Part shown: positions 6,001 through 12,000 of the stretch, piece by piece
How the letters are laid out: each line of letters opens with the position of its first letter
Numbering within the stretch: the stretch's first letter is position 1
Assembly: GCF_000026545.1 (NCBI RefSeq)
Contig: NC_011601.1
Source of the DNA: Escherichia coli O127:H6 str. E2348/69
GTDB lineage: Bacteria > Pseudomonadota > Gammaproteobacteria > Enterobacterales > Enterobacteriaceae
Reading direction: 5' to 3' (one strand)
DNA length: 64,000 bases
Made by a program: the position numbers

Positions 6001-9000
6001 GGAATGACGATAGAGGATAGGGATAGTTATATCAGGGATCTTTTTTTTCTGCATTCATTGAAAGTAAAAATTGAGGAAAGTAGACAAGGCAAAGAAGATT
6101 CGAAATGTAAAGTTTATAATCTGCTATGTCCGCATCACTCTTCAGAGCTATATGGTGATCTACGAGCAATGAAATGCCTCGTGGAAGGATGCAGTGATGA
6201 TTTTAATCCTTTTGATATTATTAGGGTACCAGATCTTACTTACAACAAAGGATCTTTACAATGTGGATGATTAGAGGCCTGTGAGCCTGTTTAGGATTCT
6301 GTGTAAATGCCTTTTCTTAAAAGTGACCGTCAAGACGGTCACCAAACTCGATAATAAAGCGGCTCATTGCCATTCGCCAGTCCCTTAACGGCATTGTCCA
6401 TTTCTGTGACGCGGCCTGGATTGCCAGCCACACCACTTTTTTTACTGACTCGTCCGTCGGGAACACCTTGCGTTTCCTGATGGCATGCCGGATCACACTG
6501 TTCAGCGACTCGACGGCGTTCGTTGTGTAGATCACTTTGCGGATATCTGCCGGATAAGCGAAAAACGTCGCCAAGTTAGTCCAGTTTGACAGCTAGCACC
6601 GGCTTATCTGCGGATAGCGGCAGTCCCAGGCCGCAGCAAACGCTTCCAGTGCCTGCTGGCCTGCCTCTTCTGTGGGAGGCTAATCGCTTTCAGGTCGTGA
6701 GTGACGGCTTTGTATTCCTTCCATGACACGAAGCGCATGCTGTTGCGCACCATATGCACGATGCATAACTGGATGCGGGCCTCCGGGAATTCTTTCAGGC
6801 CATCCACACAGGCGATGAGGATATCGTTCAGACCGCGGTTTTTCAGTTCAGTCAGCACATTGAACCAGAAATTCGCCCCTTCATTTTCGGCCAGCCGCAT
6901 CCCCAGGAGCTCTTTCTGACCTGCGATATTGATGCCCAGTGCTAGGAACATTTTTATGACAAAAAATTAGTGCAAGAAGACAAAGAATCGCCTTGCGCTA
7001 ATGCTCTGAAACAGGTCACTAATATCATCTAAATAGTTGACTCATAGTGACAGCATGTGTTGTGTCTTGCAGTATTATATAGTCTATTATTTAGATTGAA
7101 GCCATCATAATCTATTGATGTTAATGGTTTTTATTGTTTGTTGTTCGGCTTTTTATACTAATTTGAGCGAAACAAAAAGATAAAAAGTTGTTTTTCGTGT
7201 CTTTAAGTGATACCAGATGGTATTGCGCTAAATGTACCAATGGGTATACCAAGAGCACTAAAAACAAAGGGGCAACCACTTTGTAACCCCTTGATTATTT
7301 GCAGAAGCGCAGAAAATCGAACTCTGGAACCCTTTCGGGGCATCCTTTTTCAAGAATGAAGAAAAAAATAACTAAAAAATCAAGTTGTTAGGAAGTTATT
7401 CATGGCTAGTGTACCAACTCTTTTCTGGGCTAATAGCTATGATTTGTTTGTATTATTTGTCTCTGTCTCTATTATTTTTGACATCCATGCGACTTCTGAT
7501 ATTGATAATCTCAGTTGTGGAGTTCTGTCTGCGCTTCCGGGAGGACGCATATCAAAACTACTGGATCTTCTGTTAAACACTGTAAAGCCATCTACATTGC
7601 ATGTTGTTGAGTCTAAGATACAATTTTTAGTGTTACGATAATGCTAGGGCGGAAAGTTTCTTCCACTCACTAAAAGTCGAATGCATTTACGGCTAATATT
7701 TTATGAGTCGGGAAATAATGCAGACGGCTGTGTTTAATTAGATCTAGTGTGATTACAATCGGTGGTGCCGACACAGTACTTGTGGCTGTCTCAGCACGGA
7801 ACTGTTTTGAAAAACAGAACCTTGATTAGGGCTGTGTCCACATTACGTAGGTAGGATCACCCCACAGGCACCACATGTCATGCATGGATTAGGATTGAAT
7901 GATAAATCGTAAAGAAAACTGCAACACCTCGCGTGTAGCACCTGGTTAGCGAACTTTCGAAAGTACGAGTATTGTATGATTTCCAGCAGTTATCAATTTT
8001 ACGTATTAATCAGTGAATCAACAACTCGTCAGCAGACTCTCTTTGTTGTGGAATTTTTTGGAACGTGTATAGGGTAGAAATTTTTGTTTTGGGACATGGT
8101 TGGGACGCCGTAGTACATACGAACTCTGCCGAATAACGTATGATATTATTTTTTAATCTCTTGGAATACATTATAGAAACAGAATGCTCTTGGGCGATTT
8201 TTAGTGATTGTTTAAATAGCCCTGTCATGCAGTTAAAGTGGCGGGCATCCTCTTCAAGGATGGTGATCCTCAACCGCACCCATTTAGGATGCGACTATTG
8301 TGGTAGAACAATGTAAACCATAGTTAATCTGCGTGCGGATACATGCTTCATAGATAGGATATTCTGGTTTGGGTTGTGAATGTGTTGGTCATCGAGTGGA
8401 CAATAAGGTAAGAGGAGTAACTCCTGCAAAACAAAAAAAGAGTTCAACAAAATCAATCAGTTAAAAACACGAGAGATCTGTATAAAAAAGCATCGTAAAT
8501 TCTGTATTTTTCCTTTAAATATAATATGTTATTGAGTTTTGTAAAATCTACCGGTCTGGTACATGGATATCGATACCGAAGTGAAATATAAATCCAACGG
8601 CGCAGTGCTGCCTGCAGGGCGTTATTCTGACAACGTACGCCTTGACCCGTGGGTATTTATGTTCTCTGCGGGTTACCGCTTCTAATTTTTTACCATCAAT
8701 AAATATCCTCCGGCATAGCCGGAGGTTTTTCAAATGCGCCTATAAGGCTCTCTTACCAGCCGCGCCCTAACAGGCGCACACGATCTGACATTTGCATCCA
8801 ACTTCGTTACTTACGGCCCGTAAACGGGCTGCCCGGATAGGGAATCGATAACTGCTCTCCCATTTTATCCTCTTCAAGCTGGTGCTTTATGTAATCCTGT
8901 ATCTTCGCCGTGTTCTTACCCACCGTATCGACGTAATACCCTCTGCACCAGAACTCCCTGTTCCTGTACTTGAATTTCAAATCACCAAACTGCTCGTAAA

Positions 9001-12000
9001 GCATCAGACTGCTTTTCCCTTTCAGATATCCCATAAAGCCGGATACGCTCATTTTGGGCGGGATCTCCACAAGCATATGGATATGATCTGCACAGCATTC
9101 AGCTTCCAGAATCCGTACACTTTTCCACTCACACAGCTTTCTCAAAATACAGCCTATTGCTCTACGCTTCTCTCTGTAGAACACCTGTCTTCGGTATTTT
9201 GGCGCAAATACTATGTGATATTTACAGTTCCATCGGGTGTGCGCTAAGCTCTTTTCGTTCCCCATTGGGACCCCCTTTTGATTTCTTGTTTGACACTTGC
9301 AGTTGCCAGACCGCAAGGTGTTTTAACAAATCAAAAGGGGTTTTAATAACTGGCTCAAAGCTGAAAGCTTTCCGGAACCCCCAGCCTAGCTCTGTCTCTT
9401 ATACACAAATCCCCACCCGGGGATTTGTGATGTCTGTCAGTCTGCTTTAGGGGGACTCTTTCCATCCGGTAGTTTCCTTCCTCCCCGGCAGCGATTTTTT
9501 GAACTTTTTCCTCACCTGTTGATCTTCTCTTATATTTCATTTTCTTCGGGTCTGTTATGGTACTTTCTGATTGTTATTCATGGGCTAACGAGCAGTTTGG
9601 ACATGCCCGTCTCGGTGATCCGCGTCGTACACGACGCCTTGTGTCACTGGCCTCTTCTCTCGCTCAGCATGCAGGTCTTTCTATTGTGAAATCATCCCAG
9701 TCCACTGCTCAGGTTGAAGGTGCGTACCGCCTGATACGTAACCCGTCTGTGTCCCCGCAAGCCATTGCCGAAGCCGGATTTACCGCCACTGTAAGGGCAT
9801 GTGAGGCTCATCCGCTGCTCCTCGCGCTGGAAGACACCACCACCATTAACTTCAGTCACAGTACGGCATCTGATGACCTGGGGAATACCACCACTAACCC
9901 GAAGACGCGCGGGCTGCTGGCTCACTCTGTCCTGATGTACGCCCCCGACAGCGCCCTGCCAGTCGGTCTTATCGAACAGCAGCGCTGGAGTCGTGCCACG
10001 GACACCTACGGTGTTAAGCACCAGCGAAAAGAACGTCCCTATGAAGAAAAAGAAAGTTACCGCTGGCAGCAGGCTTCGGAGCGCATGGCCGAACGGCTGG
10101 GGGAGATACAGAAACGGGTAATCACTGTCTGTGACCGGGAAGCGGATATCTGGCATTACCTGCATTATAAAGTCAGCCACGGGCAGCGCTTCGTGGTGCG
10201 TGCAGCACAGAATCGCCGGCTGGAAGAAGCACCCGGCAAGCTCTTCGAACTGCCGGAAGTCCTGGCAACCGCGGGAAGCCACACGCTGAATGTGATGCAA
10301 AAAGGCGGGCGGGCAGCCCGCCAGGCCCGGATGTTCATCAGTTACAGCGAAGTCAGCATAAAAAATCCCGACAACAGCGGCCAGGCGCTCCCGCTCACGT
10401 ATGTCTGTTGCCGGGAGCAGGCAGAGGACGGCGCCTGCTGGCATCTGCTGACGTCAGAAAAAGTGGCGAGTGCCGCCGATGCGCGACGTATCGTCAGCCA
10501 TTACGAGCGACGCTGGCTGATAGAGGAATACCACAAGGCGTGGAAAAGTGGTGGTACATGTGTGGAATCGCTGCGAATGCAGACCCGGGATAACCTCGAG
10601 CGCATGGTGGTTATCAAGGCGTTTATCGCGGTGCGGGTGCTGGGCCTGCGGCAGGGCGGTATCAGTGAAGAAACACAAAATGACAGCTGTGAGAAAATAC
10701 TGACGCCGACAGAGTGGAAACTGCTGTGGGTTAAGCTGGAAGGAAAACCGCTTCCGTCACAGATGCCGACACTGAAATGGGCCTGTCTGAAACTGGCGAA
10801 ACTGGGGCGATGGCATGACAGCAAACGCACCGGTCGCCCCGGTTGGGTAGTCATGTGGGATGGCTGGTTCAGACTTCAGGATATGGTTGAGGGTTACCTG
10901 GTGATGAAGTCTCTTGATCAGGAGATCTGATCAAGAGACAGAGCCTAGCTGGGGGTTTTCTGTGCACAATAAACCGCCAGATGTTTTCTGGCGGTTTGTC
11001 TCAAATTAACGTCGTGTAGCCGCTTTCATCGGTTGTACAAAAGCTTTCAGTGCCGCCAGCATTTTCTCTGGCTCATTAATATGTTGCTCGATGATTTTAA
11101 CGATGGCCGAACCAGAAATCGCGCCTGCAGCTCCTGCATCAATCGCTGCTTTTACCTGGTCCGGAGCGGAAATACCAAATCCCTGCAATGGAGGTGCAGC
11201 GTTGTACTCTTTCAGCTTTGCAACCAGATGATTGAGGGGTAACGCGGCGCGGTTTTCTGCGCCGGTCACGCCCGCACGCGACAGCAAATAGGTGTAACCA
11301 CGACCGTAAGAGGCTATCTGGCGCAGCAAATCATCGTCGGCATTCGGTGGGCAAATAAAGATAGGTGCGACATTATGACGCAACGCGGCCTGGCGGAAGG
11401 GCGCGGACTCTTCCACGGGCACATCGGCAACCAGCACCGAATCGACGCCGACTTTCTCGCACTCGGCATAAAACTCATCAATGCCTTTGTTAAACACCAG
11501 GTTGGCATACATCAAAAGGCCGATGGGAATGGTCGGGTGCTTCTGGCGAATGAGTGCCAGCACCTCAAAGCACTGCGCCGGGGTTACTCCCGCCGCAAAA
11601 GCACGCAGTGTGGCGTTTTGAATCGTCGGGCCATCCGCCAGTGGGTCGGAGAAGGGGATGCCTAACTCCAGCGCGTCAGCACCGGCTTCAATTAGCGTAT
11701 CGATAATTTTCAACGACTGCTCAATGCCCGGATCACCGAGGGTGACGAAAGGAACGAATGCGCCTTCTTTGCGCTCCTTCAACTGGGCAAACAGAGATTC
11801 GTAGCGTTCCATCAGATTTCCCCTCGTGCTTTCAAAATATCGTGAACGGTGAAGATGTCTTTATCGCCGCGACCGGAAAGGTTAACCACCAGTAGCTGCT
11901 CTTTTTCCGGATTTTCGCGCATCATTTTCAGCGCATGGGCCAGGGCGTGGGAGGATTCCAGCGCCGGGATGATCCCTTCATGCAGGCAAAGCGTTTTAAA

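Follow-up and report, generated by a model that had tools for sequence, protein, structure and literature searches.

The interval between ompW and trpA in Escherichia coli O127:H6 strain E2348/69 raises the question of whether two nested insertion sequences (ISs) are responsible for the absence of three genes that occupy this position in K-12. Specifically, K-12 carries yciE, yciF and yciG between ompW and trpA, while in E2348/69 these genes are missing and the order within the window (the whole stretch of 64,000 nucleotides analysed, to which all positions refer) runs from the 3' tail of ompW through an IS200C element split by ISEc13 to the trp terminator hairpin and trpA, an intact minus-strand gene encoding 268 amino acids (11006-11812, stop codon at 11006-11008). 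The window is 100% identical to three E2348/69 assemblies, and because the arrangement of ISs and junctions is the same in all three, the structure of the locus is not an assembly artefact; the junction of the ompW tail with IS200 is found only in these three records. The initial annotation had described this anatomy, including the K-12 gene order and its absence here, and comparison with K-12 bears it out, each feature lying essentially where it had been placed. The distances require slight revision: the ompW fragment does closely adjoin IS200, though across a gap of 12 nt from the ompW stop codon rather than 13, and the approximately 30 bp proposed between IS200 and the trpA stop codon amounts to 38 nt, or to 31 nt with an alternative justification of the boundary. 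Both ISs are ordinary, well known and annotated in RefSeq, and the strain itself is well studied; a full-text literature search found no paper tying E2348 to ISEc13.

Strains that carry neither IS and likewise lack the genes refute the initial proposal of an IS-associated deletion of yciEFG. Removal in silico of 711 bp (IS200C) and 1559 bp (ISEc13 plus one copy of its target duplication) yields exactly the sequence of strain A25 over 741 nt, an identity that spans a prophage attachment core, the ompW tail, the terminator and 590 nt of trpA. This IS-free ompW-trpA junction is present in one piece in 682 of 5,426 complete E. coli genomes; K-12 yciEFG matches 4,730 genomes of the same set, leaving 696 without a match at megablast sensitivity. 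The same junction is found in E. whittamii, Escherichia sp. E1V33 and a divergent E. coli, and a further match to a Paenibacillus contig in the exact-pattern genome scan was dismissed as chance. Since IS-free strains, E. whittamii and E1V33 share the junction while Salmonella enterica and Citrobacter keep the genes, in the order trpA-yciG-yciF-yciE-katN-ompW, the loss is an old deletion of the lineage in which the trp terminator survived. IS200C and ISEc13 deleted nothing; the absence of yciEFG predates both and is lineage-wide. The deletion, in an ancestor of a large E. coli lineage and of some other Escherichia species, removed the ompW terminator together with yciG-yciF-yciE (and possibly katN) and left a convergent ompW and trpA separated by 50 bp, with a single hairpin serving both. 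This lineage is presumably phylogroup B2; a literature search returned nothing relevant on yciE, yciF or yciG in that phylogroup. Compared with the K-12-type locus, the flanking genes (yciC, ompW, trpA to trpE) retain their order and orientation and the terminator stem is homologous, while E2348/69 lacks the yciEFG block and the ompW terminator, and its ompW encodes a last loop that is five codons longer.

A copy of yciEFG elsewhere in the genome, a point raised by the initial annotation, was not found in the three E2348/69 chromosomes: adding K-12 yciEFG to the query left the place counts of 36, 34 and 32 unchanged, in a search of megablast sensitivity that a paralogue of less than about 85% identity would escape. 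E2348/69 and approximately 690 other complete E. coli genomes are without near-identical copies of these RpoS-regulated stress genes, an absence that is relevant whenever stress-response data from K-12 are transferred to such strains. The locus also carries a caution, in that an old, lineage-specific gene absence takes on the look of fresh IS damage when a B2-type genome is read against K-12.

Two competing accounts of the loss deserve consideration. That IS200, ISEc13 or both deleted yciE, yciF and yciG in this very strain, fusing an ompW remnant to the trp terminator, is suggested by the presence of the genes in K-12 and by the two ISs that fill exactly this interval in E2348/69, but has next to no chance of being correct. 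Excising both elements gives the junction of IS-free strains base for base, and that junction is common to the 682 genomes and to at least two other Escherichia species. Moreover, a search for the signature of IS-mediated adjacent deletion found the opposite, with the ISEc13 duplication intact and both IS200 flanks contiguous in the empty site of IS-free strains, one or other of which such a deletion would destroy. Alternatively, the ancient loss of yciGFE (with or without katN) may be the work of a mobile element that later disappeared and left no scar. Deletions often occur beside prophage and IS hot spots, and ompW serves as a prophage attachment site, yet strains like A25, free of both ISs and prophage, have a clean 50-bp ompW-trpA spacer without any IS or att remnant, and divergence from K-12 reaches into both flanking genes (73-85% identity in the 3' half of ompW and about 94% in trpA), a pattern more in keeping with an old haplotype than with something recent; this account is accordingly unlikely. 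An old deletion that kept the trp terminator remains the favoured reading, and is very probably one of four independent and ordinary events, alongside prophage integration, IS200C insertion and ISEc13 insertion, none of which removed yciEFG in this strain.

IS200C totals 711 bp on the minus strand, divided between a major part (8698-9391; IS200 nt 18-711, comprising the right end, tnpA, the 5'UTR and the inner half of the left-end terminator hairpin) and the outer tip of the left end (10951-10967; nt 1-17, GTGCACAGAAAACCCCC on the minus strand). The tip is contiguous with position 9391 in the unbroken second copy of the window (41513-42223), to which IS200C is identical at 711 of 711 positions. 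The sole open reading frame, tnpA (8807-9265, minus strand; IS200C family transposase according to PGAP), encodes a single-domain Y1 (HUH) transposase of 152 amino acids that covers 120 of the 121 positions of the Pfam Y1_Tnp profile (E=1.7e-37) and matches the IS608 and ISDra2 TnpA structures in the PDB (E=1e-16 to 1e-19). Upstream lies the 5'UTR/art200 (STnc490) region (9275-9398, minus strand; Ellis et al., 2015, PMC4513863), matched over the full length of Rfam model RF01405 with 116.9 bits (gathering score 56); the final 7 nt of this match extend into ISEc13. The element has no terminal inverted repeats and has subterminal hairpins at both ends: the right-end hairpin CCTCCGGCATAGCCGGAGG (8707-8725) folds as a terminator-like structure on both strands, and the left-end hairpin CCCCCAGC-TAG-GCTGGGGG, whose region (nt 12-34) has been described as a bidirectional terminator (PMC4513863; PMC5435999), can be pieced together from the sequence on either side of ISEc13. 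IS200C resembles IS200 of the IS200/IS605 family (IS200 group) in its length of about 710 bp, single Y1/HUH tnpA, left-end terminator, 5'UTR stem, art200/STnc490, right-end hairpin, lack of terminal inverted repeats and target duplication, and position just downstream of a host terminator; nothing intrinsic differs, and the copy beside trpA is distinguished only by a left-end hairpin interrupted by another IS.

The insertion site can be defined closely. No target-site duplication accompanies IS200C, its flanks ACCATC and AATAAAC are not repeated, and the A25 empty site is shorter by exactly 711 bp. The boundary, set from that empty site and an IS200 copy in strain LF82, is ambiguous within 6 bp, AATAAA being present at both junctions, and was settled by parsimony using a third copy. 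Matches to IS200 in LF82 and other strains start at the ompW stop codon, which lies 15 nt to the left, and a longer IS or a shared target was considered and rejected, the alignment reflecting chance similarity of AT-rich flanks. AATAAAC (10968-10974, minus strand; GUUUAUU on the trpA strand), present as a single copy in the A25 empty site, doubles as the trp terminator's U-rich tail and as the insertion target of IS200, which follows directly 3' of this T-tract on the trpA strand. The adjoining hairpin, CCGCCAGAAAACAUCUGGCGG (10975-10995, minus strand), had rightly been taken for the trp terminator, as its CCGCCAG/CTGGCGG stem is conserved with trp t of K-12 and Citrobacter; in the yciEFG-less lineage, the convergent ompW and trpA genes have no other terminator between them. 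A consensus terminator scan did not report it because A/T pairing carries the stem on into the T-tract, and direct folding, used instead, gave the same fold with and without IS200. IS200 sits just beyond the T-tract, and both the hairpin and the UUUAUUG tail are unaltered. Each of the three IS200 copies examined has its left end directly behind a hairpin and T-tract, and IS200/IS605 elements have already been reported to be enriched just downstream of terminators (bioRxiv 10.1101/2025.07.22.666184). On the trpA-sense strand, IS200C inserted directly 3' of TTTATT, the T-rich tail of the trp terminator, without duplicating its target, presumably by the single-strand peel-and-paste mechanism that its membership of the Y1/HUH family suggests. 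The locus offers a base-exact example of an IS200 placed just after the T-tract of a host terminator that is left unharmed.

ISEc13 (IS4 family, IS50/Tn5-like) occupies 1550 bp on the plus strand (9392-10941), with ends CTGTCTCTTATACACAAAT and, on the other strand, CTGTCTCTTGATCAGATCT. Its transposase of 457 amino acids (9557-10930, plus strand) matches Tn5 transposase structures over residues 6-453 (E=6e-84) and scores above the Pfam cut-offs for Tnp_DNA_bind and DDE_Tnp_1, and just under the cut-off for Dimer_Tnp_Tn5 (24.1 against 26.7 bits). The imperfect terminal inverted repeats start with CTGTCTCTT, the first 9 of 9 bases being identical at both ends and the remainder partially similar. 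Homology of the transposase to that of Tn5 over its full length, ends that likewise begin CTGTCTCTT and a 9-bp target duplication all ally the element with IS50/Tn5, and its right end presumably equals the IS50 inside end; nonetheless, ISEc13 is a separate IS of 1550 bp with many copies in E2348/69, here without resistance genes and not within a composite transposon. Thousands of matches in E. coli genomes are annotated as ISEc13, and an inverted copy in the window (54316-55865) is 100% identical, though flanked by a repeat of only 8 bp.

The clean 9-bp duplication noted initially is confirmed as AGCCTAGCT at 9383-9391 and 10942-10950, the left copy being IS200 nt 18-26, the centre of the left-end terminator hairpin. 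Because this duplication consists of IS200 sequence and excision restores an intact IS200 identical to another copy, ISEc13 arrived after IS200, as had been supposed. The IS200 piece beyond ISEc13 measures 26 nt including the duplication, and reaches the 33 nt first reported when the ambiguous AATAAAC is counted; in the orientation of IS200 itself, however, this is the left end, upstream of tnpA, and not the right end as had been stated. A Tn5-like DDE element thus entered the centre of the hairpin and generated the duplication, and the IS200 copy beside trpA appears to have lost its left-end terminator and, because its left end is split by 1.55 kb, is probably immobilised. The locus in this respect illustrates how a Tn5-like IS can disable an IS200 when it splits the left-end terminator that protects it. 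Similar-looking IS200::IS4 nestings in other genomes proved to be unrelated neighbouring ISs; at the SCU-101 locus, near iroB, the two are decayed neighbours that share no junction with the nesting described here.

Two further alternatives concern these insertions. An IS200 already carrying ISEc13 could have moved beside trpA as one composite unit, since IS200/IS605 elements can in principle carry passenger DNA; this is hardly credible, as the IS200::ISEc13 junction appears in no other of 20,395 records, where it would rank at about 75% coverage, and ISEc13 splits the very hairpin that IS200 needs. The initial annotation also suggested that the insertion could affect trp termination, which would mean a weakened terminator and read-through into IS200 and ISEc13. 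The DNA downstream of the U-tract has indeed been replaced, and the left-end terminator of IS200, a would-be second barrier, is split; against this, the empty site has exactly the same hairpin, UUUAUU tail and subsequent G, and because the hairpin and its 7-nt U-rich tail are untouched such weakening is improbable, as judged from sequence. Unimpaired trp termination is the more plausible reading. Separately, the sequence beyond the U-tail is changed and could slightly modulate termination efficiency.

The ompW "remnant" has yet another origin, being the product of prophage integration and not of either IS. The initial annotation overlooked this truncation, as well as an intact ompW 53 kb away at attL. 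The native 3' tail (8557-8685, plus strand; last 42 codons and the TAA stop at 8683-8685), a partial OmpW pseudogene according to PGAP, corresponds to positions 159-195 of the 195-position Pfam OmpW profile and has the same sequence as the 3' end of ompW in prophage-free A25, where the gene is intact and encodes 217 amino acids. The 26-bp attachment core CGGTCTGGTACATGGATATCGATACC lies within ompW coding sequence at attR (8552-8577, plus strand) and recurs in the intact ompW at attL (position 5525 of the attL locus), 53,241 bp away; each side holds it once, while attB is unbroken in A25, where an intact ompW runs through the core into the same tail as at attR. At attL, ompW is immediately followed by integrase and excisionase genes, with no yciEFG on that side. 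The 53-kb lambdoid prophage carries nleA, nleH1-2, nleF and an espO pseudogene, with the effector cargo at its right end. It integrated by site-specific recombination at the core, supplying a replacement ompW 3' end at attL and leaving the native 42-codon tail at attR, displaced and probably not expressed as a gene.

Lambdoid effector prophages in the 3' part of host genes, such as the Sp9/CP-933P-type phages of EHEC O157 with nleA, nleH and nleF, share the integrase and excisionase beside attL, the core repeat at both ends, the nle cargo at the right end and a host gene kept whole by a phage-supplied 3' end. The E2348/69 prophage does not differ in kind, though its replacement tail encodes another last OmpW surface loop than the native one. 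The core lies just before that loop, and upon integration a phage-encoded version (TAKYKSGVTTVKDS...) takes the place of the native long loop and the last strand (EVKYKSNGAVLPAGRYSDN...). Native tails with a long loop (217-aa OmpW) or a short loop (212-aa) coexist as old allele classes in Escherichia and Citrobacter. It is tentatively suggested, as a rather doubtful possibility, that the exchange could be lysogenic conversion of a phage or colicin receptor, and that the tail polymorphism may be selected and recombine along with the yciGFE-less junction.

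RefSeq annotates a partial OmpW pseudogene at this locus, then the transposases of IS200C and ISEc13, and then trpA. The anatomy of the locus was derived from direct sequence reading together with internal-repeat comparison. The last 42 codons of ompW (8557-8685, TAA at 8683-8685), which align with the C-terminus of the Pfam OmpW profile, are separated by a 12-nt spacer from the 711-bp IS200C, which starts at 8698 and occupies 8698-9391 and 10951-10967, the latter segment comprising the remaining 17 nt of the element. The tnpA gene of IS200C lies on the minus strand at 8807-9265 (Pfam Y1_Tnp, E=1.7e-37). 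IS200C is interrupted by the 1550-bp ISEc13 (9392-10941), whose transposase gene (9557-10930) displays Tn5 transposase homology over its whole length (E=6e-84), and a 9-bp target duplication, AGCCTAGCT, is found on both sides of ISEc13 (9383-9391 and 10942-10950). Beyond the IS200C tip, AATAAAC (10968-10974) and then the trp terminator hairpin, CCGCCAGATGTTTTCTGGCGG (10975-10995), precede the trpA stop codon (11006-11008, minus strand). The initial annotation had described this arrangement correctly to within a base or two. Approximately 3 kb around the locus are 100% identical in three independent assemblies of E2348/69, an enteropathogenic E. coli of serotype O127:H6 (the window begins at position 1,431,214 of NZ_LT827011.1), and no other record matched over the full length.

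The ompW remnant, previously linked to the ISs, is better understood with reference to a lambdoid prophage that the initial annotation overlooked. A 26-mer, CGGTCTGGTACATGGATATCGATACC, is present at 8552-8577 (attR, the right prophage junction) and again 53,241 bp upstream (attL), inside an intact ompW gene that is immediately followed by phage integrase and excisionase genes. The prophage lies between these two copies, and its right end fills 1-8551. At attL the 3' end of ompW has been supplied by the phage, while the native tail, stranded at attR, is identical to that of A25, an E. coli strain lacking both the prophage and the two ISs. Together these data show that the ompW fragment was made by prophage integration rather than cut by an IS. 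Several genomes with an IS-free ompW-trpA junction match a few bases further on the phage side and have a partial OmpW annotated beside trpA, indicating that IS-free prophages at the ompW site are common. The element in E2348/69 is an ordinary effector-carrying lambdoid prophage that occupies the 3' portion of its host gene. Window 1-8551 constitutes the effector cargo locus of this 53-kb prophage: nleA (1581-2903, minus strand) is followed by a decayed integrase gene (~3558-4552), nleH1-2 (4724-5635), nleF (5701-6270), an IS256 fragment (6317-6951), an espO pseudogene (~7437-7634), and an IS3 fragment with AT-rich DNA extending as far as attR.

In K-12, yciE, yciF and yciG are present between ompW and trpA, and their absence from E2348/69 had been attributed to an IS-associated deletion. 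Several lines of evidence contradict this proposal. When an IS-free version of the site was built in silico and searched in 5,426 complete E. coli genomes, the junction was found in one uninterrupted piece in 682, with ompW and trpA annotated as adjacent; the best match, A25, reads tonB-yciA-yciB-yciC-ompW-trpA-trpB with nothing between ompW and trpA. With refined boundaries, the window minus IS200C, ISEc13 and one copy of the duplication equals A25 exactly over 741 nt, from the ompW tail through the spacer and the hairpin and including 590 nt of trpA. The two insertions thus brought in 2,270 bp without any loss. The hallmark of an IS-mediated adjacent deletion, flanking sequences that were not contiguous in the ancestor, was looked for at this site and was not found. 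Consistent with a loss independent of the ISs, K-12 yciEFG was matched in 4,730 of the 5,426 genomes and was lacking from 696, about as many as carry the direct junction. The initial annotation had itself named IS-free relatives that also lack yciEFG as the observation that would refute its proposal, and this was the outcome. At the attL side of the prophage ompW is followed directly by the phage integrase gene, with yciEFG absent, and appending K-12 yciEFG to the 3-kb query did not alter how many places matched in each of the three E2348/69 chromosomes (36, 34 and 32), indicating that there is no near-identical copy elsewhere in E2348/69.

The direct ompW-trpA junction is instead a derived, old deletion. 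Salmonella enterica and Citrobacter share the order trpA-yciG-yciF-yciE-katN-ompW, which makes the presence of yciGFE ancestral. An exact-match scan with the hairpin, covering one genome per species, recovered it in three further Escherichia genomes (E. whittamii, Escherichia sp. E1V33 and a divergent E. coli), in each of which ompW and trpA are adjacent and the spacer is conserved. The stem CCGCCAG/CTGGCGG is common to E2348/69 and the trp terminators of K-12 and Citrobacter, upholding the earlier identification of the hairpin beside trpA, while the ompW terminator (GACCCCG...CGGGGTC) of K-12, Citrobacter and Salmonella is gone. The deletion therefore spared the trp terminator and removed everything from there to ~13-19 nt past the ompW stop. 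Identity between E2348/69 and K-12 stays at ~98-100% until about a third of ompW has been passed, drops abruptly to 73-85% over the remainder of the gene, and is only ~94% across trpA. This pattern points to an old divergent haplotype rather than a recent event, and suggests a recombination boundary inside ompW. The regions concerned are ~5178-5643 of L004, the attL-side locus with intact ompW, and 11006-13000 of the window, in trpA and trpB.

The order of the two insertions is clear. Joining 8698-9391 to 10951-10967 yields a sequence identical at 711 of 711 positions to the uninterrupted IS200C at 41513-42223, and because the duplication flanking ISEc13 consists of IS200 sequence, ISEc13 arrived after IS200C, as first proposed. 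The interruption does lie near one end of IS200C, but this is the left end, upstream of tnpA, and not the right. The duplication corresponds to IS200 nt 18-26, at the centre of a hairpin (nt 12-34) that has been described as a bidirectional Rho-independent terminator protecting tnpA from outside transcription (Ellis et al., PMC4513863; PMC5435999). ISEc13 destroys this left-end terminator and parts nt 1-26 from the remainder of the element by 1.55 kb, and the copy at 8698-10967 is therefore probably immobilised. The Rfam STnc490/art200 model matches 9275-9398 (minus strand, 116.9 bits). A record search with the locus sequence found the ompW-tail/IS200 junction in the three E2348/69 records only and the IS200::ISEc13 junction in no other record, indicating that both insertions are specific to the line of E2348/69. 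Elsewhere in the window, the second IS200C lies between pdeR (39334-41292) and rnb (42265-44199), and a second ISEc13, 100% identical to the first (54316-55865, minus strand), has an MFS transporter gene on one side and sapF on the other and is flanked by an 8-bp repeat, ATCCTGAG, rather than one of 9 bp.

The initial annotation also raised a possible effect on trp termination. In trpA-sense orientation the empty site is hairpin-GTTTATT-GATGG and the occupied site hairpin-GTTTATT-GTGCAC(IS200), demonstrating that IS200 inserted directly 3' of the T-rich tail of the terminator without duplicating target bases. Since the hairpin, its seven-base tail and the next base are identical to the empty site, and the RNA fold is the same in both contexts, trp termination is presumably unaffected. 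A consensus terminator scan misses this terminator (10968-10998, minus strand), as A/T pairs extend the stem into the T-tract and the site is rejected by the tail criterion, a blind spot of the scan rather than biology. The left end of the second IS200C directly follows a different GC-rich hairpin and GTTTATT, and an IS200 copy in strain LF82 directly follows a hairpin and TTTTT. Such placement fits strand-specific, target-sequence-directed insertion by Y1 transposases, and it also agrees with a report that terminators are over-represented just upstream of IS200/IS605 elements (bioRxiv 10.1101/2025.07.22.666184).

Taken as a whole, the observed arrangement is confirmed, but the proposed IS-associated deletion of yciEFG is refuted and the truncation of ompW is attributed to prophage integration. 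The locus is ordinary and already annotated. Its components are all typical of known families, IS200C of the IS200/IS605 family, ISEc13 of the IS50 group of the IS4 family and the prophage of the lambdoid effector prophages, and all testable defining features of these groups were found here.

Two mildly interesting by-products concern OmpW, whose last surface loop and final strand occur in three versions (window 8557-8685; L004 5005-5643; comparison locus L003 2481-3134; ompW of comparison loci L014 and L015). A 217-aa long-loop allele is represented by the native E2348/69 tail, A25 and one Citrobacter, a 212-aa short-loop allele by K-12, Salmonella and another Citrobacter, and the third version comes from the prophage, at attL. 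Long- and short-loop tails are old allele classes present side by side in both Escherichia and Citrobacter. As the att core is placed exactly where the versions begin to differ, integration could, by swapping the loop, convert a phage or colicin receptor.

A block at 46705-54296, between fabI and sapF, is not known from the K-12 gene order; its genes are those of a TetR-family regulator, of an RND efflux set (an HlyD-like adaptor, a 1035-aa AcrB-family pump and an outer-membrane factor) and of an MFS transporter. Lastly, a YkgJ-family (CxxCxxCC) gene that is intact in Salmonella, where it encodes 134 aa (L012 8040-8444), has been reduced in E. coli to a 90-bp remnant at the same place, between yciC and ompW (L003 2152-2241; L004 4676-4765).
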